Below, piece after piece: positions 7,629-45,311 of a DNA stretch of 64,000 nucleotides. Below the pieces are notes generated by a model that saw nothing but the letters and a program-made list of their open reading frames with translations, searched no databases and had not been told where the DNA came from. Source of the DNA: Clostridia bacterium. Its GTDB lineage: Bacteria > Bacillota > Clostridia > TANB77 > CAG-465. Position numbers and translations under genes: made by a program. The stretch's first letter is position 1, and each line of letters starts with the position of its first letter. The stretch spans positions 1,373-65,372 of the forward strand of contig JAZTYX010000054.1 in NCBI GenBank assembly GCA_045637095.1, written 5' to 3'.

Positions 7629-8081
7629 ATGAAAAAAAGAGGTGTTACTCTAATTACTTTAAGTATAATTGTAGCGGTAATGGCTATTCTTACAGCAGTA
7701 ACAATAACTATAGGAACAGACATACATACAGGTGCGCAAAAAGCTAGATTTCAAGCTGAAATAGCTCAAATTGAAATACTTACAAGTAATTATATAAGAA
7801 GAAATTCTGGAAATGATTTTACACCATATACATGGAATGTTACATCGCTTTCAGGTTATGATGAATCTCAATTTGAAGGTGAAATAATAACAGGTGGCAA
7901 CATTAATGTATATGTAGTAGACTTAACAAAGATAGATGCAGAAGAAGTAAACGATGGCCTTTTAGAAAATGGTGCAAATGATAGATATTTGTATTCTGAA
8001 CAGACAGGTCATGTGTATTATGAAAAAGGCAAAACTTTTGGTAGTAAAGTATACTACAGAGTTTCAGAATTAGAGGAGTAG
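7629..8081 (+). CDS. Small pilin-like / signal-anchored protein (family member 1)
   Basis: Strong SD GAGGAGG. N-terminus MKKRG|VTLITLSIIVAVMAILTAV resembles a class III prepilin leader but lacks Phe+1 and Glu+5. Its globular part is homologous to the N-terminal domain of the next gene (YLYSEQTGHVYYEKG against IYAYSELTGRVYYLNG). Confidence 0.55.
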   Translation: MKKRGVTLITLSIIVAVMAILTAVTITIGTDIHTGAQKARFQAEIAQIEILTSNYIRRNSGNDFTPYTWNVTSLSGYDESQFEGEIITGGNINVYVVDLTKIDAEEVNDGLLENGANDRYLYSEQTGHVYYEKGKTFGSKVYYRVSELEE

Positions 8082-9656
8082 ATGAAGATGAGATTAAAAA
8101 AAGGAATAACAATGGCTATGCTTGTTGTTATAGTTGCAGTGCTAGGAATATTAGCAACTGTAACAGTAACATCCATATCTAATAGTTATACAAACTCTAA
8201 ATTAGCTATTTGGACATCCGAAATTAGTATTGTACAAGATCTGATGAAAGAGAAAAGAGATAACCTATCAAATATTTTAATGGATGAAATAACATTTGAT
8301 GTTTCGGGTATATCTCAAACAACTTTAGCAGAACAATTTTCTGGAGAAACAATAATATCAAATAAACTTACATTAAAAGAAATAAATCTTGCGGCTATTG
8401 GAGTAGACAATGCGTTATATGGAGTTCACAAAGATACATTAGATATATATGCGTATTCTGAACTAACAGGTAGGGTGTATTATCTAAATGGCTTTGATGC
8501 AAGAATAAAAGAATATTACACTTTAACGCAAGAATTAAAAAATAAATATGGAGATAACTTAACAGTATCTAATTTATCTCTAATTTCTTTTGAACAAAGT
8601 GAAATAGAACCAACAATGAATGCGGTTAAAGTTACTGTTAAAGTACCTAAAACATATACAACAGTAAGCATAACAACAACAAATTCAAGTATAACAGTTG
8701 GTTCAAGAGTAACAGAAACAGATAAATATACATATCCAGTAAATACTAATGGAATAAAAGGCAATTATACAATAACGGTAACTTATACAGAGGGTGGAAC
8801 AACAAAGACAGTTACACATAAAGTAACAAATGCAATATCTACTTTGGGAGCTTTAATTACTAGCGCGCAGGATTACGGTAAAACAGTAGATTATGTATCA
8901 GACAATGGCGTTAAAAAATGGAATGTGTTGTATGAGGATACTACCAATGGGTATATTTATCTAATAGCTACTGAAAAGTTGGCATATAATAAAATGCCAA
9001 CAATACCAGGTGCGACAATAACATCATCTGCAGTAACTCTTGAAAATGGCACATCTAAAAATGTTGGGCAAATAAATTGGGTAAGCGTACCAACAGGAAC
9101 AACAGTTGCTAGTGATGCAAAAACAAAATGGAAAGCTGAATGGTCATCGTATACATCTGGAACAAACGCAAAATGTATATCATATTTTCTAGATGAAACA
9201 TATTGGACAGGACTAAAAAATACAACAGCAGCATACAAAGATTATGTATTAGGTGCAATAGGTACACCAACAGCAGAACTATTTGTACTAAGTTGGAATG
9301 CTAAAAGAGCTGCAACAAACAATACAACTATATACAACAAACAAATATCTTTAACGGTAAGAAGTACGACTACAGGCTACTACGTAAAAGATGCATCAGT
9401 GTCTACCAATACATATCTTCAAGCATTAACTACAGGAGATAAATTGTATGTGTGGAATAATTCAGAATTATCTACAACATGGTTAGCTTCACCAGGAGCT
9501 GTTACAGCAAATTATATATTAATAATAGGTAGTACAGGAAATTTAAGTTATGATACATATAGTGCATCTAACCGCGGAATAAGACCGGTAGTGTGTCTAA
9601 AGTCAGATACACCGGCAGTTTTAGGGACAACAACAGATTATAGTTTAATAAAATAA
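8082..9656 (+). CDS. Large pilin-like / signal-anchored surface protein (family member 2)
   Basis: N-terminus MKMRLKKG|ITMAMLVVIVAVLGIL. Thr-rich beta-type middle region. The C-terminus (TTWLASPG...NRGIRPVVCLKSD) shares a motif with the 23019 and 44046 proteins (YWLAT...VRAVVTLA.D). Confidence 0.55.
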   Translation: MKMRLKKGITMAMLVVIVAVLGILATVTVTSISNSYTNSKLAIWTSEISIVQDLMKEKRDNLSNILMDEITFDVSGISQTTLAEQFSGETIISNKLTLKEINLAAIGVDNALYGVHKDTLDIYAYSELTGRVYYLNGFDARIKEYYTLTQELKNKYGDNLTVSNLSLISFEQSEIEPTMNAVKVTVKVPKTYTTVSITTTNSSITVGSRVTETDKYTYPVNTNGIKGNYTITVTYTEGGTTKTVTHKVTNAISTLGALITSAQDYGKTVDYVSDNGVKKWNVLYEDTTNGYIYLIATEKLAYNKMPTIPGATITSSAVTLENGTSKNVGQINWVSVPTGTTVASDAKTKWKAEWSSYTSGTNAKCISYFLDETYWTGLKNTTAAYKDYVLGAIGTPTAELFVLSWNAKRAATNNTTIYNKQISLTVRSTTTGYYVKDASVSTNTYLQALTTGDKLYVWNNSELSTTWLASPGAVTANYILIIGSTGNLSYDTYSASNRGIRPVVCLKSDTPAVLGTTTDYSLIK

Positions 9657-15608: not shown

Positions 15609-16166
15609 ATGAATGGTGAAATGAATGCTAATAATAACGCTAATGGCAATACTACTAATAATAGGTCTGCTTCTAGTAACGGAGGATTTAACATAAGCAA
15701 TCTGTTTGATCTTTCTAGAATTGGGAATATGTTTAGTGGCAATACTAGAGTAAATAATCCATTAAATAATATACGTAGAATGTTTAGTGGAAATAATATG
15801 AATAGAAGATATGTCGGAAATAGAAATATGCTAAAAGTTCTCCCTATAGAAGAAGCATATAGAAGGATTAAAAGTGGAAACATTCTTCTTATAGATGTAA
15901 GAACGGAAATGGAATATGCAACGCTAAAGATAAAAGGAAGCGTAAATATTCCGTTAGATAGATTGCAAATGGAAATAGTAAATATGGTGGCTAATAAAGA
16001 GGAGAATATAATGTTATATTGTGCAACTGGCTCAAGGGTAAGACGTGCAGCTCAAATTCTATGGTCACTTGGATATAACAATATATACATATGGGAAGGA
16101 GCAGGTATAAATACATTTGCTTTTCAAGATTTAATAGTATATAATAACAGGCAGCAAGATGAATAA
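15609..16166 (+). CDS. Rhodanese-domain sulfurtransferase with an Asn-rich N-terminal extension
   Basis: The C-terminal 100 aa form a rhodanese fold with active-site loop YCATGSRVRRA. The N-terminal 80 aa are low complexity (N-rich with repeated MFSGN motifs). Confidence 0.8.
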   Translation: MNGEMNANNNANGNTTNNRSASSNGGFNISNLFDLSRIGNMFSGNTRVNNPLNNIRRMFSGNNMNRRYVGNRNMLKVLPIEEAYRRIKSGNILLIDVRTEMEYATLKIKGSVNIPLDRLQMEIVNMVANKEENIMLYCATGSRVRRAAQILWSLGYNNIYIWEGAGINTFAFQDLIVYNNRQQDE

Positions 16167-16184
16167 CTTGCTAGGAGGAAACTT

Positions 16185-16499
16185 ATGAAAGAATTAAACG
16201 ATAATAACTTTAGAGAAGAAATAAAGAAAGAAAAATTAGCACTTGTAGATTTTTATGCAACTTGGTGTGGACCATGTGGTATGCAAGCGGAAGTATTAAA
16301 GAAAATGTCTGAATCTAGAACACTAGAATTTAGTATAGTAAAAGTAAATGTAGATGAAGCACCAGGGTTAGCATTAGAACATAGCATATCATCTATACCA
16401 ACATTAGTAGTATATAGAGAAGGAAAAATGGTTAAAAAGGTAGTTGGACTATCTGATGAAGAAGAAATATTAAATATCATGAGTGGATTTATGGACTAA
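16185..16499 (+). CDS. trxA: Thioredoxin
   Basis: WCGPCGM active site, 104 aa, good SD GGAGGA. Confidence 0.9.
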   Translation: MKELNDNNFREEIKKEKLALVDFYATWCGPCGMQAEVLKKMSESRTLEFSIVKVNVDEAPGLALEHSISSIPTLVVYREGKMVKKVVGLSDEEEILNIMSGFMD

Positions 16500-16528
16500 A
16501 TCCTATGATTTAGCTCTAAAACAAGGTT

Positions 16529-16590
16529 TTGTAACATTTGTGTAACACAAAAGTATGTATTTTGTAACACAAATGTTATTTGTTTGTAGT
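16529..16590 (+). terminator. long AT-rich hairpin terminator after trxA
   Basis: Arms GTAACATTTGTGTAAC (16531-16546) and GTAACACAAATGTTAT (16565-16580) pair at 15 of 16 positions and are followed by TTGTTTG. The stem contains an inner 7-1-7 palindrome TTTGTGTaACACAAA. Confidence 0.5.
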
Positions 16591-16618
16591 TGATTTTGAA
16601 AAGCCTTATATCTATAAT
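16590..16618 (+). promoter_or_regulatory. sigma-A promoter of the repeat-protein gene
   Basis: TTGATT, a 17-nt spacer, then TATAAT. Confidence 0.5.
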
Positions 16619-16669
16619 TGAAGTATAAGTAATTATTATAAATTATTTCTACAAATTTCTACAAAAGAG

Positions 16670-17779
16670 GTGTTAAAAATGAAAGGATTTTTTGAAAGAC
16701 AATGGGAATTATTCCTAGCTGACATGCAAGAAGTAGGTGAATTCTTCCTAGACGCATTTGGTGCTAACGAACAATTAATGTTAGGTGCTCCAAAAGCAGA
16801 TAAAGTTGAAGGAGAAGAAGGATTCTTCGCAAGAGAATTCAGACTATTCAAAGAAGACATGCAATCTTTAGGTGAAATGTTCATGGCTCCATTCGAAGCA
16901 GATGAACCACTTATGTTAGATTCAGCAGAACCTGAAATGCCAAAAGCAGAAGCAGACGGATTCTTCAAAAGAGAATGGGAACTATTCAAAACAGATCTAG
17001 ATAATGCCAATTCAGCTTTAGAAAGCTTATTTGGTATTGAAAAAAAAAATGATGAAATAGTTGAATGTGCTGATGTACCTGTAGAATTCAGAGATGAAGT
17101 AGATGTAAAACTTGAAACTTTTTTGGGAGAACCAATAAATGAGTTAAAAGAAAGTGCTTGTGGAGATAGAACTCAACACGAAGTTCTAAGAGACTATGCA
17201 GAATTCTTCAAACCATATGCAGAAAACCCAGATATGTGTCAAATGGCATTCAAAAAATACTATGACAGACATGCTTTAAAAATGGCAGTTTCTGAACTAC
17301 CTATCGAGCAAGTTAGAATAGTACAAAATAATGTAGACATATTTATCAAAGGTCAAGAATCATTTGGTGAACCATTTGTTGACTCAAGAGTTGATACAGT
17401 TTTCGAAAAAGCTGGAATCGATGAAGTAAACAAGGTTATCGGAATTATAGGTGACTGTGATTCTGAAGGTAAAACATTAAAAGGTGAAAGACTTTTTGCA
17501 GAAGCAGTAAATTACATGGTAGATCATGGTATAAGAGTTGCTAAGGATGGGGATTTAATTGAACCAGTTAGAAAAGCAATAGAAGCTCAACACGACGAAA
17601 TACACACTACAATGTGTTCATTTGAAGATGTTGGACCAGAATATCAAGAACTATTAGCTAAAGAAAAAACTTATTTAGCTGCATTAAATAGAATTGAGCA
17701 ATACGAAACTGAAAAAAGAATTGCTGCATTCGAAGCTAAAATGAGTGATGAAGTTAGCGGATTAGATGTAATACTTTAA
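16670..17779 (+). CDS. Acidic hypothetical protein with three tandem 46-aa repeats (GFFxRxWELFxxDMQ...), probably highly expressed
   Basis: Three consecutive 138-bp DNA repeats (16679-16816, 16817-16954, 16955-about 17090). Codon usage (TTC, GCT, CCA, AAC, GGT) matches rpsO rather than its neighbours. Strong promoter and SD. Confidence 0.7.
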   Translation: MLKMKGFFERQWELFLADMQEVGEFFLDAFGANEQLMLGAPKADKVEGEEGFFAREFRLFKEDMQSLGEMFMAPFEADEPLMLDSAEPEMPKAEADGFFKREWELFKTDLDNANSALESLFGIEKKNDEIVECADVPVEFRDEVDVKLETFLGEPINELKESACGDRTQHEVLRDYAEFFKPYAENPDMCQMAFKKYYDRHALKMAVSELPIEQVRIVQNNVDIFIKGQESFGEPFVDSRVDTVFEKAGIDEVNKVIGIIGDCDSEGKTLKGERLFAEAVNYMVDHGIRVAKDGDLIEPVRKAIEAQHDEIHTTMCSFEDVGPEYQELLAKEKTYLAALNRIEQYETEKRIAAFEAKMSDEVSGLDVIL

Positions 17780-17788
17780 AATGTTAAA

Positions 17789-17827
17789 AAGAAGTAAATG
17801 TATATAATCATTTACTTCTTTTTTTGT
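17789..17827 (+). terminator. rho-independent terminator
   Basis: AAGAAGTAAATG-tatataat-CATTTACTTCTT followed by TTTTTTG. Confidence 0.75.
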
Positions 17828-17926
17828 GCTTTTTAAGGTCTTAAAATTCCCTAAAACCCTTTACAAATCTACGCTTTTGGTATATTATATGGTTGTATTT
17901 AAATAAATAGAAATAAATAGGGGTAA

Positions 17927-19414
17927 ATGTATATGAAATTAGAATTAAAAGTTCAAAAAGATGGTGTAAATACACTAAAAGAGGAAGTGTTAAAACACAG
18001 TAACAGCAAATTAGAAAAAATGTATCTAGTTATGGGAAATGTTAAGGAATCTGGTTATGATGTAATAGAAGAAGCTTTAATAGATCTTAAAGCTAAAACT
18101 AACATTGTAATGGGGATAGATAAAAAGAACACTACTAAAAAGATACTAGATAATATAGTAACATATTCTAAGAATGTATCTGTGTGGGATAATAACGAAG
18201 ATAATGAACTTAATGCAAACGTATTTGTATTTGAGTATGAAGATGAAGCGTGCGTTTATACTTTTGCAGGAGATATAACAGATAGCGTTCTTGAAACAGA
18301 TACTACTATGTATACATATATAACATATGATTTAATTAAAGATAAAAAAGAATATGCAGCATTTATAGATACATTAACTAAGGAATTAAAAGATAAGGTA
18401 GAAAAATTAACTAAAGCAAAAATTGCTGAGTTAAGTGAGAATAAAAAGATATTTAGTTCAAGACAATATCTACACAATGTTCCAAGCATAGCTGAATTAT
18501 TAGGAAACAAAGAAACAGCTAAAAAAGAAACTCGTGAAGAAGTGGAAGAAGAAACAAAACAAGATTATGTGGAAGATGAAGAACTTCCTAAAGTAGAGCT
18601 TAATAAATTCAAAGATGTGGCTTTTGAAATTGACCTAAGCGATATGGATATTAGCATAGACGACATATCTGTTGGCTTAGTTGGAGAAACTAAGAAAAAA
18701 GATGCTAAGGTAGAAAAGAAGGAAGAACATGTACTTGACCTTACTGAAGCTTTAGAACAAGAAGCAAATCTGGGTGTAGAAGCTGAAGAAGTAGCTCTTG
18801 TTGAAGAAGAGGAAGAATATGTGGTTTCTGATGAAATAATAGATTTAGAAGAACTTCTTTTTGAAAAAGAAACAGTTAAATTAGACAAGAAAAAAGTAGA
18901 AAAGAAAATAAAGAAAGAAGCTAAAGAAAAAGAGGAAAATAAACCAGCTTCTAAAAAGATAGATTTAACTAAAGTATCTAATATAATAATGGAACTTCCA
19001 AAGAAAGCAACTAAAGGAAGAGATGCAGATGCAGTAAAAGTTCCAACATACATTCGTGAGATGATACCAGATTTCTTTGATGTAATGGAAAACGCTACAT
19101 TAGTAGAAAGAGAAGATGGTAAATACAAAGAAGTTAAAATAAAACTTGAAGTAATAGATGTTAATTCTGGGGAAAAACATATGGATAATGAAGCGATGTT
19201 ATCTCACAAGCTAGGACAAACATATGTAACTTTTGAATCACGTAAATTAATAAACGTAAACTATGAAGAATTAGATATAGCAAGGGTAATTAAATTATCT
19301 AAAGATTCATATCACATAGAAATAATTCCATCACATATGGAAGAATATAACCTATGGAAGAAGATGTGTACAAACACATTTAGAGGAAGCAGTAGACAAT
19401 ACGGCTTAATGTAA
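17927..19414 (+). CDS. Hypothetical protein: PLD-like N-terminal domain with a degenerate HKD motif, an acidic/Lys-rich linker, and a possibly B3-like C-terminal domain
   Basis: The N-terminal 150 aa (YLVMGNVKESGYDVIEEALIDLKAKTNIVMGID...NANVFVFEYED...) match PLD-like alternating strand-helix topology, but HxK is replaced by NAN. The C-terminal KVPTYIREMIPDFF...YVTFE resembles B3/EcoRII-N DNA-binding barrels. Confidence 0.4.
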   Translation: MYMKLELKVQKDGVNTLKEEVLKHSNSKLEKMYLVMGNVKESGYDVIEEALIDLKAKTNIVMGIDKKNTTKKILDNIVTYSKNVSVWDNNEDNELNANVFVFEYEDEACVYTFAGDITDSVLETDTTMYTYITYDLIKDKKEYAAFIDTLTKELKDKVEKLTKAKIAELSENKKIFSSRQYLHNVPSIAELLGNKETAKKETREEVEEETKQDYVEDEELPKVELNKFKDVAFEIDLSDMDISIDDISVGLVGETKKKDAKVEKKEEHVLDLTEALEQEANLGVEAEEVALVEEEEEYVVSDEIIDLEELLFEKETVKLDKKKVEKKIKKEAKEKEENKPASKKIDLTKVSNIIMELPKKATKGRDADAVKVPTYIREMIPDFFDVMENATLVEREDGKYKEVKIKLEVIDVNSGEKHMDNEAMLSHKLGQTYVTFESRKLINVNYEELDIARVIKLSKDSYHIEIIPSHMEEYNLWKKMCTNTFRGSSRQYGLM

Positions 19415-23018: not shown

Positions 23019-24332
23019 ATGAAAAAGGGAATATCATTAATAGTATTAGTTATAACTATAATTGTTATGATAATCTTAGCAGTATCTGTTGTAATTACGC
23101 TAACAAACACAGGAATAATAAATAAAGCAAATCAAGCGGTAAGCCAAACAAATGAACAACAACTCCAAGATTTAGCTGCACTTTTATGGGCGGATTCATA
23201 TATGGCTGGTAAAAGAGGAATAGAGCTAAAAGAAGAAGTTTTAGAACAATTAAAAGAATATAAAACAGATTATAGAATTCTTGTTACAGACAACGGTGTA
23301 ACAGTGCAAGATAGAAAAAATATTGACTGGAAAATGGTTAGAGAATATGATGAAAATGGGCTAATAACAAAAGTAATGTTAACAGATGGAATCGAGTCAT
23401 ATGAAATAGGAACAACTGTTAACTATATGCCAAGTGGAATTGGACCAACAAACTATAAATCTGGTTGGAAACTACTTGGAGTAGATGAACAAGGAAGATT
23501 GTTATTGATGTCTGCTTCGGATATATTAGGAGCTAAATTAAATGGAGAAGAAGATTTTGTAAATGGAATACAAAAGTTAAATAATTTAGTAGCAGATTAT
23601 AAAGATGGAACAGTAGGTATATCTTCAAGAAGTATAACTGTAGAAGATATAAATAAGATTACTGGATTTACACTAGAAGATGCAAATTCAACAGAATATT
23701 TGGCGTACAGAGTTGCATATAATAAACAACAAGGTATTGGCGGTACAGAAGAAGAATTATTAAATGGAGTATTACAAACAATGGGATTTTCGGATATATC
23801 TCAAGCTTCAATTTTAGATAGTGGCTTGGATATAAATATATCGTGGGATGGTACAAGATATCCTAAATGTACATATGTTCAAGATGGAGTTACTAAAACA
23901 TATAGTTTGCAAGCAGAACATAATTGGAATGGATTTAGATACTATGATGCCAAAACAAATAAATTTGTAACAGCTCCTTATGCAGAACAAGGCGAAATAA
24001 CTACAGTAACTAATAAGTTGTATGCTTATGATGGATTAGCAAAATATTCAGCGGATTCTAAAGCATATAAAATGCTATTTAAATATCCAAATAGTGAAAT
24101 TTTGGCTGGATATTGGTTAGCAACACACTATACACGAGTTAATGCTAAAGCGTACTTTATGGGGATGCATTATGTACATAGTGGTTTTGTAGCAGCTACA
24201 TATTTAATAGGTTCTCACAGCGGTAGTGCAGAATCAAGTTCTAGTGTTAGAGCGGTAGTAACTCTTGCACCAGATGCTGAACTTGTGGAAAGTACAAACA
24301 ATATTGGAACATATAACATTATAAAGGATTAA
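23019..24332 (+). CDS. Pilin-like / signal-anchored surface protein (family member 3), probably co-transcribed with smc
   Basis: Starts 20 nt after the smc stop, with SD GGAGG. N-terminus MKKG|ISLIVLVITIIVMIILAVSVVITL. Full-length paralog of the 44046 protein. Confidence 0.6.
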   Translation: MKKGISLIVLVITIIVMIILAVSVVITLTNTGIINKANQAVSQTNEQQLQDLAALLWADSYMAGKRGIELKEEVLEQLKEYKTDYRILVTDNGVTVQDRKNIDWKMVREYDENGLITKVMLTDGIESYEIGTTVNYMPSGIGPTNYKSGWKLLGVDEQGRLLLMSASDILGAKLNGEEDFVNGIQKLNNLVADYKDGTVGISSRSITVEDINKITGFTLEDANSTEYLAYRVAYNKQQGIGGTEEELLNGVLQTMGFSDISQASILDSGLDINISWDGTRYPKCTYVQDGVTKTYSLQAEHNWNGFRYYDAKTNKFVTAPYAEQGEITTVTNKLYAYDGLAKYSADSKAYKMLFKYPNSEILAGYWLATHYTRVNAKAYFMGMHYVHSGFVAATYLIGSHSGSAESSSSVRAVVTLAPDAELVESTNNIGTYNIIKD

Positions 24333-44045: not shown

Positions 44046-45311
44046 ATGCAAAAGAAAAAAGGTATATCGTTAATAGTTTTAGTCATTACAATAATAGTAA
44101 TGATAATATTGGCAGCAAGTGTTGTAATAACGTTAAGTAATACGGGAATAATAAATAGAGCAAATCGAGCTGTAGAATTAACAAATGAAAGTCAAGTGCA
44201 AGATTTAGCTGCATTAATATGGGCGGATGCTTATATGGATGAATTGAGAGGAACAGATTTAGTAAATAAAGTAAAAGAAGATTTAGATAAAAAAGGTATA
44301 AAAGAAGCTGAATGGAAAATAACAGTAACAGATAGTGGAGTTAGTGTTATAAATAAAGCAAATATACCAGTTCCGAAATGGGAATTAAAAAGAACAACAA
44401 ATGATTCGGGAATAGTTACAAAAGTAATAGTTACAGATGGGACGAGTGAAATAGAAGTAGGTTCTACTATAAATTATATGGTAGACGGAGTAGGAGATAC
44501 AAACTATAAAGGTGGATGGAAACTACTCGGTGCTGATGAAAATGGAAGATTATTGATAGTATCAACCGCAGATCTTGGTATAACAGGAAGCAACATTACA
44601 ATAGGAGATAATGCTAATTTTGATACTTGTAAAACAAGTATGGAAGGTGCGTTAACGACATTGCAAAATACAGTTAATAGTTATAAAGATGGAACAATCG
44701 GAGTAGAAGTTAGAAGCATAAGAATGGATGATGTGGATAAAGTAACAGGATTTGATCCTAAAACATATACAACATATTTTATGAATGCGGGCAACGTTAA
44801 TTCGTATGGGCAGGAAGTAAAATACGAATGGGATAATAATGCTGTAAAATATACTTGGAAAAACGGTGATGAAACAGTAACCGGTACATTGGAAGGACCA
44901 CATGGGGGTTATACATATTTTGATGAAACAACAAACAAGATTATAACAAGTGCAAAAGCAGCTTCTGGAGATATAGTAACGTTAAAAGAAAGTTATTATG
45001 GATATACAGGTAAAAACGTTCTGAGTGAAGAAACATTATCATATAAGATGTTATTTAGAAATTCAACAGATACAGCTAATGTAGCATATTGGTTGGCCAC
45101 AAGAAGTGTATTAATGTATTATGATTTTACAAATTTTTGTCTGGGGATTGTAAGTAGTAATTTTGCTAATCCTGGTGCACTAAGCATAGTAGATTCAATG
45201 GGGATGTATAGTGCATATTCATTCCCTGTTCGTGCGGTGGTGACGTTAGCAGCTGATGTAACTCTTACAGAAAGTAAAACAGTATCAGGCGCGTATGATT
45301 TAAACAAATAA
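44046..45311 (+). CDS. Pilin-like / signal-anchored surface protein (family member 4), immediately upstream of the dcw cluster
   Basis: N-terminus MQKKKG|ISLIVLVITIIVMIILAASVVITL. Collinear similarity to the 23019 protein, including the C-terminal YWLAT...VRAVVTLAADV. Confidence 0.6.
   Translation: MQKKKGISLIVLVITIIVMIILAASVVITLSNTGIINRANRAVELTNESQVQDLAALIWADAYMDELRGTDLVNKVKEDLDKKGIKEAEWKITVTDSGVSVINKANIPVPKWELKRTTNDSGIVTKVIVTDGTSEIEVGSTINYMVDGVGDTNYKGGWKLLGADENGRLLIVSTADLGITGSNITIGDNANFDTCKTSMEGALTTLQNTVNSYKDGTIGVEVRSIRMDDVDKVTGFDPKTYTTYFMNAGNVNSYGQEVKYEWDNNAVKYTWKNGDETVTGTLEGPHGGYTYFDETTNKIITSAKAASGDIVTLKESYYGYTGKNVLSEETLSYKMLFRNSTDTANVAYWLATRSVLMYYDFTNFCLGIVSSNFANPGALSIVDSMGMYSAYSFPVRAVVTLAADVTLTESKTVSGAYDLNK

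Follow-up and report, generated by a model that had tools for sequence, protein, structure and literature searches.

The window analyzed here is a 64,000-nucleotide stretch of contig JAZTYX010000054.1, from the Clostridia bacterium assembly GCA_045637095.1, and our subject is a single plus-strand gene within it that encodes an acidic protein with internal repeats. The open reading frame (ORF) runs from a GTG codon at 16,670 (Table 1). However, translation almost certainly begins at the ATG codon at 16,679, because the GTG falls within the Shine-Dalgarno sequence AAGAGGTG and all homologues begin with MKGFF or MxxFW. As a preliminary description of this DNA had stated, the encoded protein is acidic; it has an isoelectric point (pI) of 4.42, with 82 Asp and Glu residues versus 41 Lys and Arg, as well as 28 Phe residues.

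The preliminary description had also reported three tandem repeats in a perfect 138-bp register. The motif GFF does indeed occur three times, with motif starts at 16,685, 16,820, and 16,958, but the units are spaced by 135 and then 138 nt (45 and 46 codons), so the register is not perfect. Units 1 and 2 are 64% identical at the DNA level and 42% identical at the protein level. Unit 3 can be aligned over its first ~45 nt only (~15 codons, with about 70% nucleotide identity), and lacks the half of the unit that carries ...G-E-x-F...LML. Tandem Repeats Finder, applied to positions 16,000–18,500 with a minimum score of 30, returned no period of ~135–138. At the protein level, the internal repeat is unambiguous and far above chance: the best 30-residue self-match scored 80 at an offset of 45 residues, compared to a mean of 26.6 (standard deviation 4.8, maximum 48) in 300 shuffled controls. 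Thus, the claim of three repeats stands for the protein, with the proviso that the third unit is partial.

Alignments of 28 and of 100 family members revealed that the N-terminal region is variable, and that the C-terminal ~240 residues are very conserved. In the 100-sequence alignment, this C-terminal domain contains 70 invariant columns. They include C187 (numbered in the full protein), which sits in the strictly conserved block EMC(Q/N)xAF(K/R)KYYDRHALK; RI(I/V)QNNVD and YLxALNRIEQxETE are further conserved blocks. The AlphaFold2 (AF2) model of the C-terminal domain, built with 100 sequences, is all-alpha, with a predicted local distance difference test (pLDDT) score of 85.5 and a predicted template modeling (pTM) score of 0.82, and ends in a 46-residue helix. 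In the model of the full-length protein (pLDDT 66, pTM 0.39), the N-terminal region forms three isolated long helices, one per repeat, with low-confidence linkers between them. When the C-terminal domain model was compared with PDB and BFVD using Foldseek, there was no match at E ≤ 0.001. The top-ranked matches had query-normalized template modeling (TM) scores of ~0.28 (PDB) and ~0.30 (BFVD); to count as a fold match, either sequence or profile similarity or a TM-score from Foldseek of at least ~0.5 was required. The full-length model was rejected as a Foldseek query, as its matches, at a pLDDT of 66, were meaningless.

Table 1. Coordinates of the features discussed in the text. Positions are those of the window, except for the two small genes, which are numbered within their own loci (L024 and L059).
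Feature	Position	Strand	Description and source
ORF	16670-17779	+	From GTG
Coding sequence	16679..17779	+	366 aa, 41.8 kDa, pI 4.42
TGTWAH-type hexamer array	16530..16590	+	11-nt phase; runs into the -35; scan
Sigma-A-type promoter TTGATT-17-TATAAT	16590..16618	+	-35 within conserved TGTAGTTGATT block; scan
5' leader, tandem ATTTCTACAA x2	16645..16665	+	Perfect duplication just 5' of the Shine-Dalgarno sequence
Shine-Dalgarno sequence AAGAGGTG	16665..16672	+	6 nt 5' of ATG; kept in nearly all loci
Repeat unit 1	16685..16819	+	aa 3-47; amphipathic helix GFFERQWELFLADMQEVGEFFLDAF, ..QLML.. tail, acidic linker; AF2 helix 2-26
Repeat unit 2	16820..16957	+	aa 48-93; GFFAREFRLFKEDMQSLGEMFMAPF, ..PLML.. 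tail, linker; AF2 helix 49-73
Repeat unit 3, diverged	16958..17053	+	aa 94-125; GFFKREWELFKTDLDNANSALESLF, no LML tail; AF2 helix 95-118
Conserved all-alpha C-terminal domain	17054..17776	+	aa 126-366; invariant Cys187; AF2 model
Terminal ~46-residue helix	17636-17773	+	aa 320-365; AF2
Intrinsic terminator	17786..17833 (scan: 17786-17823)	+	15-bp stem and T-run; scan
Rhodanese-domain protein gene	15609-16166	+	Pfam
Thioredoxin gene	16185-16499	+	Pfam
Small gene, example 1	L024 6073-6318		About 20 further loci
Small gene, example 2	L059 5992-6264		

Family spread, motif number and a separate small gene

The protein had been described as belonging to no known family, and this was borne out by all of our searches. 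The best match in Pfam was DUF4581 (E = 0.13; 12.9 bits, against a cut-off of 27), NCBIfam gave no match, and the best E value in PHROGs was 0.09. Similarly, phmmer found no match among PDB sequences, and the best E value in a PDB profile search was 0.44. When Pfam was run over 100 family members, the last helix alone attracted weak coiled-coil matches, all below threshold. The families that recurred (PRKG1_interact, Mu Gam/Sipho_Gp157-like, EspA, and the cortexillin coil) reached best E values of 0.006–0.09, far under their gathering thresholds, and we attribute them to the composition of the long helix, and not to homology. Since all tests of membership in a known family failed, with the exception of the WalR-type cis-element described below, we consider the protein to be new at the level of both family and fold, as judged against Pfam, NCBIfam, PHROGs, PDB, and BFVD.

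A word-indexed search identified 307 homologues, all of them unnamed or “hypothetical,” and none with a Pfam domain. An exhaustive search of 1.84 billion cluster representatives with a hidden Markov model (HMM) found two full-length clusters, plus fragments only, and the family is narrow. The same exhaustive profile search yielded a single distant relative, P0131, which is also the only other architecture with this domain. P0131 is a much longer, AT-rich protein of 842 residues; its last ~110 residues are a divergent copy of the C-terminal half of the family (E = 3e-18), and its N-terminal 730 residues contain no Pfam domain.

In a set of species-representative genomes, the family was present in 78, of which 77 are metagenome-assembled genomes (MAGs) classified as Clostridia, Clostridium, Clostridiaceae, or Bacillota. 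The remaining carrier, L077, is a contig of 2.8 kb that had been placed in an Actinomycetes bin. Gut samples of sheep, buffalo, deer, rabbit, chicken, mouse, and human origin are represented, and Clostridium sp. CAG:465, CAG:921, and CAG:1219 are among the carriers. Judged by these genomes, the family is confined to one uncultured lineage of gut Clostridia. On the basis of GTDB names, this lineage is probably the order TANB77. A tblastn search of 50,697 phage and 72,556 plasmid records found no homologue, and we therefore rejected the idea that the gene is cargo of a mobile element, phage, or plasmid. Between loci, the protein is 45–57% identical, compared to 54–62% for SMC and 55–66% for the P-type ATPase encoded nearby. 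As far as sequence comparison goes, few lineage-specific genes here are conserved as well as this one, and it is probably also among the most expressed.

The number of N-terminal motifs differs between members. Among the 78 loci, the long protein has one motif in 64, two in 1, three in 12, and none in 1. In a neighbor-joining (NJ) tree rooted at the midpoint, the three-motif forms constitute a single clade that includes the window, and on this tree the triple repeat is an expansion specific to that clade. In at least 21 other loci, a small gene encoding 76–101 amino acids lies directly 5' of a one-motif long gene. Its product comprises two or three motifs only (an FWxNEWxLF...QPVEF module, each motif ending in QPVEF or QPVTF), and the gene is preceded by a phased TGTWAH array of its own. 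With the small protein as the query, a profile search recovered a family of 158 proteins. The best 120 of these 158 matches are all short, unnamed, and domain-free, with none fused to another domain; otherwise, the motif was found on the long proteins only.

In the window protein, the first two units (..DMQEVGEFFL.. and ..DMQSLGEMFM..) scored as more similar to the first unit of the small protein (..DMxELGEFCL..) than to the motif of the long proteins. Furthermore, the window's clade and the small genes have a -35 block, TGTAGTTGW, in common, the window version of which is TGTAGTTGATT. All loci of clades I and II have this small-gene-type block. In clade III, it is found at the small genes, and the long genes of these split loci have TGTTATTGC in its place (48/56). 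The shared promoter type and the similarity of the units to the small protein are most simply explained by a fusion, in which the 5' end of a small gene (promoter and motifs) was joined to the C-terminal domain of a long gene to give the gene seen in the window. Whether by fusion or by fission, the two products would then be linked in the Rosetta-stone sense, which would imply that they work together.

Expression signals and the upstream hexamer array

The TTGATT-17-TATAAT promoter named in the preliminary description was recovered by our scan, as was a terminator belonging to the gene itself, the hairpin of which folds with -15.7 kcal/mol (z = -6.0). In the 5' leader, a single TACAAAAGAGGTG copy is kept family-wide, and its tandem duplication is restricted to the closest relatives of the window. 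An Rfam scan of positions 16,100–18,000 produced a sub-threshold microRNA as its sole match.

Compared to the window median, the synonymous codons TTC (0.64 vs. 0.23) and ATC (0.22 vs. 0.03) are raised in the gene, as are CAC, GAC, ACT, GTT, GCT, and GGT. Of the five codons that had been listed as favored, TTC, GCT, and GGT were confirmed and CCA is slightly enriched (0.77 vs. 0.67), but AAC is not enriched (0.27 vs. 0.31). We also defined a codon axis as the log-odds of rpsO, nusA, and infB versus all other genes of the window, with the gene of interest placed in neither set. On this axis, it ranked second of 46 genes, between rpsO and infB (z = 2.7 relative to the non-reference genes), which agrees with the rpsO-like codon usage noted earlier, even though a reference set of ~1,400 codons is small and makes the comparison supportive, not conclusive. 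Based upon the codon bias, the near-consensus promoter, the strong Shine-Dalgarno sequence, and the strong terminator, we infer that the protein is probably abundant.

The promoter is preceded by hexamers spaced with an 11-nt phase, namely TGTAAC at 16,530, 16,541, and 16,563, TGTTAT at 16,574, and a degenerate TGTAGT at 16,585. The consensus for WalR, which has been used for Bacillus, Staphylococcus, and C. difficile, is TGTWAH-N5-TGTWAH (doi 10.1101/2022.04.01.486798). In the promoter region of the window gene, this cis-element is present as two perfect boxes (16,530–16,546 and 16,563–16,579). The 64-kb window contains five perfect matches to the consensus, three of which are located here, with 1.9 expected across the whole window. 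A scan of the window that allowed one mismatch found 36 boxes versus 42 expected, so that at this stringency there is no enrichment, and the scan is uninformative with regard to a regulon.

In 77 related loci, totaling 875 kb, 71 of the 116 perfect boxes lie no more than 260 nt 5' of the gene, and a second cluster is found 5' of the small gene. A strict box is present in 44 of 74 upstream regions, and a box with at most one mismatch in 72 of the 74; by contrast, the strict spacing controls with N4 and N6 occurred in 1/74 and 0/74, respectively. Distances between hexamers have sharp peaks at 11, 22, 33, and 44 nt. When the regions are aligned with the -10 as an anchor, the last hexamer abuts a sub-consensus -35 in nearly all loci. 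As alternative forms of the operator, we rejected reversed hexamers and the N4 and N6 spacings, as well as the Bacillus-type PhoP box (TT(A/T/C)ACA repeats with ~5-nt spacers), which was found in 0/74 regions even with one mismatch.

By these sequence features, the array has the architecture of promoters activated by response regulators of the OmpR/PhoB family, with a match to the WalR consensus. It resembles the WalR (YycF/VicR) promoters of Firmicutes in having two exact direct repeats in an 11-nt phase that adjoin a sub-consensus -35. It differs from them in having four to five hexamers where a single box is usual, and in preceding a gene whose product is probably cytoplasmic and not a secreted cell-wall hydrolase; the regulator itself is only putative.

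Alternatively, the TGTAAC repeats might have nothing to do with a response regulator: they might fold into an RNA hairpin, terminate transcription of the thioredoxin gene, or bind an unrelated regulator peculiar to the lineage. In favor of this, the two boxes form a 19-nt inverted repeat (16,532–16,578; 89% complementary) in the clade to which the window belongs, though in no other, and the region folds with -21 kcal/mol (z = -3) and is followed by a U-rich stretch. However, the inverted-repeat character is limited to this clade, whereas the other clades conserve the strict 11-nt phasing of the direct hexamers and their fixed distance to the -35. In addition, the hexamers also occur at loci without an upstream thioredoxin gene, and at the small gene. 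We therefore regard this explanation of the repeats as very unlikely.

A possible helical scaffold and competing explanations

Our preferred reading, to which we assign a probability of roughly 0.4, is that the gene encodes an abundant cytoplasmic helical scaffold, in which the C-terminal domain oligomerizes, the N-terminal helices are multivalent interaction modules, and the level of which is set by a WalR-like regulator. Such a scaffold would be built from two modules. The first would consist of one to three ~25-residue aromatic amphipathic helices (F-F/W-x-x-E-W-x-L-F-x-x-D-M/L...), each followed by an acidic linker, and the second of the ~240-residue all-alpha domain, with its unmatched fold and coiled-coil-like end helix of 46 residues. 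Transcription would start at the sigma-A promoter, which has a weak -35 with four to five phased TGTWAH hexamers in front of it. We envisage that the C-terminal domain may oligomerize via its long helix, and that the amphipathic helices may serve as multivalent “stickers” for a hydrophobic groove, which could belong to the same protein, the small paralogue, or a partner. The level of the scaffold would be set by a two-component system, possibly one that tracks growth of the cell envelope. An extended version of the idea, in which the small and long proteins jointly form an abundant and so far unrecognized scaffold, or a system resembling a cytoskeleton, within the cell, with an alpha-helical fold that is new, specific to the lineage and coupled to envelope growth by a WalR-like regulator, is more speculative and, in our opinion, rather unlikely.

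The preliminary description had left the choice between a structural, a storage, and a stress protein open. The predicted all-helical domain with its long terminal helix, in conjunction with the multivalent amphipathic helices, favors a structural or scaffold role, and nothing speaks for storage. A stress or storage protein, be it a chaperone-like holdase, a coat resembling late embryogenesis abundant (LEA) proteins or phasins, or an amino-acid store, could also be acidic, helical, repeat-containing, and probably abundant. Nevertheless, the C-terminal domain is globular and well folded, and with its 70 invariant columns is not of low complexity. Moreover, the promoter is of the vegetative sigma-A type and has an activator array, and Pfam gave no phasin, LEA, or small heat shock protein signal. 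We consider a role of this kind to be the most improbable of those discussed here.

The helices themselves bear upon a further possibility, namely, that the protein is a peripheral membrane component of the division or envelope machinery, with the helices as membrane-targeting elements, the tripling of which raises avidity. They contain many F and W residues and have an amphipathic profile, in which the hydrophobic moment, calculated over 18 residues, peaks at 0.42–0.55. WalR-type control would hint at envelope growth, and many loci have a bactofilin-domain gene nearby. As in MinD, FtsA, and SepF, there is a terminal amphipathic helix with aromatic residues. Known bacterial membrane-targeting helices, however, are cationic, whereas those of the repeats have a net charge of -1 to -5, are repeated with long linkers, and belong to a protein that is strongly acidic as a whole. 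A cationic targeting sequence of the MinD/FtsA type was rejected for this reason, despite the hydrophobic moment. On the repeat helices, the hydrophobic residues F, W, F, M, V, and F line up as an a/d-type heptad stripe, as is typical of helix-helix packing. Anionic helices with an a/d stripe speak for such packing and against a classical cationic membrane anchor, and we accordingly view membrane targeting as unlikely.

The closest analogies for the proposed scaffold are the CsoS2- and CcmN-type organizers of carboxysomes and the encapsulation peptides of microcompartments, which are scaffolds with multivalent short helical motifs and linkers. The likeness extends to short amphipathic helices that number one to three, to poorly conserved acidic linkers, and to the presence here of a free-standing paralogue made of motifs only. 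In contrast, there is no sequence similarity, there are no shell or cargo genes at any of the 78 loci, and the motif is found on two paralogous families only (among the best 120 of the 158 small-protein matches), and not on diverse cargo. We therefore rejected the possibility that the motif is a microcompartment encapsulation peptide or scaffold in the strict sense, as it is not carried by several cargo proteins, and shell genes are missing from all 78 loci.

Several observations count against the preferred reading, or against parts of it. In the full-length AF2 model, with its pTM of 0.39, the N-terminal helices are not confidently docked onto the C-terminal domain. Many of the invariant residues of that domain are polar (C, H, D, R, Y, N, and Q), and would fit an enzyme as well. 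With regard to the fusion, unit 3 of the window (LFKTDLDNANSAL) resembles both the last unit of the small protein (LFKQDLxNAKxFL) and the motif of the long protein, and the midpoint-rooted NJ tree is compatible with either fusion or fission. With regard to the regulator, a receiver-motif scan found no response regulator in the 64-kb window, nor was there any in the loci, with WalRK not having been searched across genomes. The classic targets of WalR are mostly secreted enzymes of the cell wall, and the encoded protein has no signal peptide. Finally, the inverted repeat in the array could be a hairpin or the terminator of the thioredoxin gene, as discussed above.

The family may nevertheless be useful. 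Its strong conservation and probable high expression suggest the protein as a possible marker of the lineage, or as an antigen. It could also be a starting point for studying the cell biology of that lineage, as well as a two-component regulon recognizable from sequence. If the carriers are members of the order TANB77, they have not been cultured, although they occur commonly in the guts of humans and animals. An association of TANB77 with cancer immunotherapy outcome has been reported (PMC11680825). As a caveat, metagenomes contain many orphan families.

Genomic neighborhood

In most loci, the gene occupies the last position in the order P-type ATPase, rhodanese, (thioredoxin), [small gene], long gene, while the genes downstream vary. 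The relatives of the window have orf495 and smc downstream, and elsewhere a nucleotidyltransferase, a membrane protein, dnaG, and sigA are found. Together with the clade-specific triple repeat, the small paralogue that consists of repeats only, and the array of the response-regulator type, this rhodanese/thioredoxin synteny was absent from the preliminary description. The neighborhood is of a housekeeping kind, and the linkage to rhodanese and thioredoxin genes provides a weak hint at function.

That hint could be taken to mean that the protein is a thiol- or persulfide-linked enzyme, or a client of the adjacent rhodanese and thioredoxin, with Cys187 as its reactive center. The rhodanese-(thioredoxin)-long gene order is retained in most loci down to ~41–50% identity while the downstream genes change, and the domain has one invariant Cys among its many invariant polar residues. 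Yet, a promoter and an operator array of its own precede the gene, and an intergenic hairpin lies between it and the thioredoxin gene. Many member loci lack the thioredoxin gene altogether, and conserved synteny is weak evidence in so narrow a lineage. In addition, searches of Pfam, NCBIfam, PDB profiles, and Foldseek gave no similarity to any redox or sulfur-transfer family. On balance, an enzyme or client of this type appears distinctly unlikely.

Several other features of the neighborhood are worth recording. The rhodanese-domain protein of the window begins with an Asn/Gly-rich low-complexity N-terminal extension of ~75 residues (MNGEMNANNNANGNTTNN...), which is shorter in other clades, where the protein has 120–160 amino acids. 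Between the gene described here and smc, orf495 (17,927–19,414, plus strand) encodes a 495-residue acidic protein with a Glu/Lys-rich middle and no Pfam domain, and the orf495-smc pair is kept in the window's clade and its sister clade. Many loci have a ~400-residue bactofilin-domain protein encoded 5' of the P-type ATPase (e.g., L024 1183–2421). In many loci, a gene for the germination protease Gpr (Peptidase_A25) is located a few genes 5' of the long gene (e.g., L030 2940–3815), and its presence suggests that at least part of the lineage may be spore-forming.

At some distance from the gene, the plus strand of the window also encodes several proteins with prepilin-like hydrophobic N-termini (7,629–9,656, 23,019–24,332, and 44,046–45,311; e.g., MKKGISLIVLVITIIVMIILA...), and in two of them this N-terminus is nearly the same. 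They are similar to pilin-like proteins that have been reported as specific to the TANB77 order, and the many pilin-like genes of the window fit the pilus cluster described for that order (PMC11680825).

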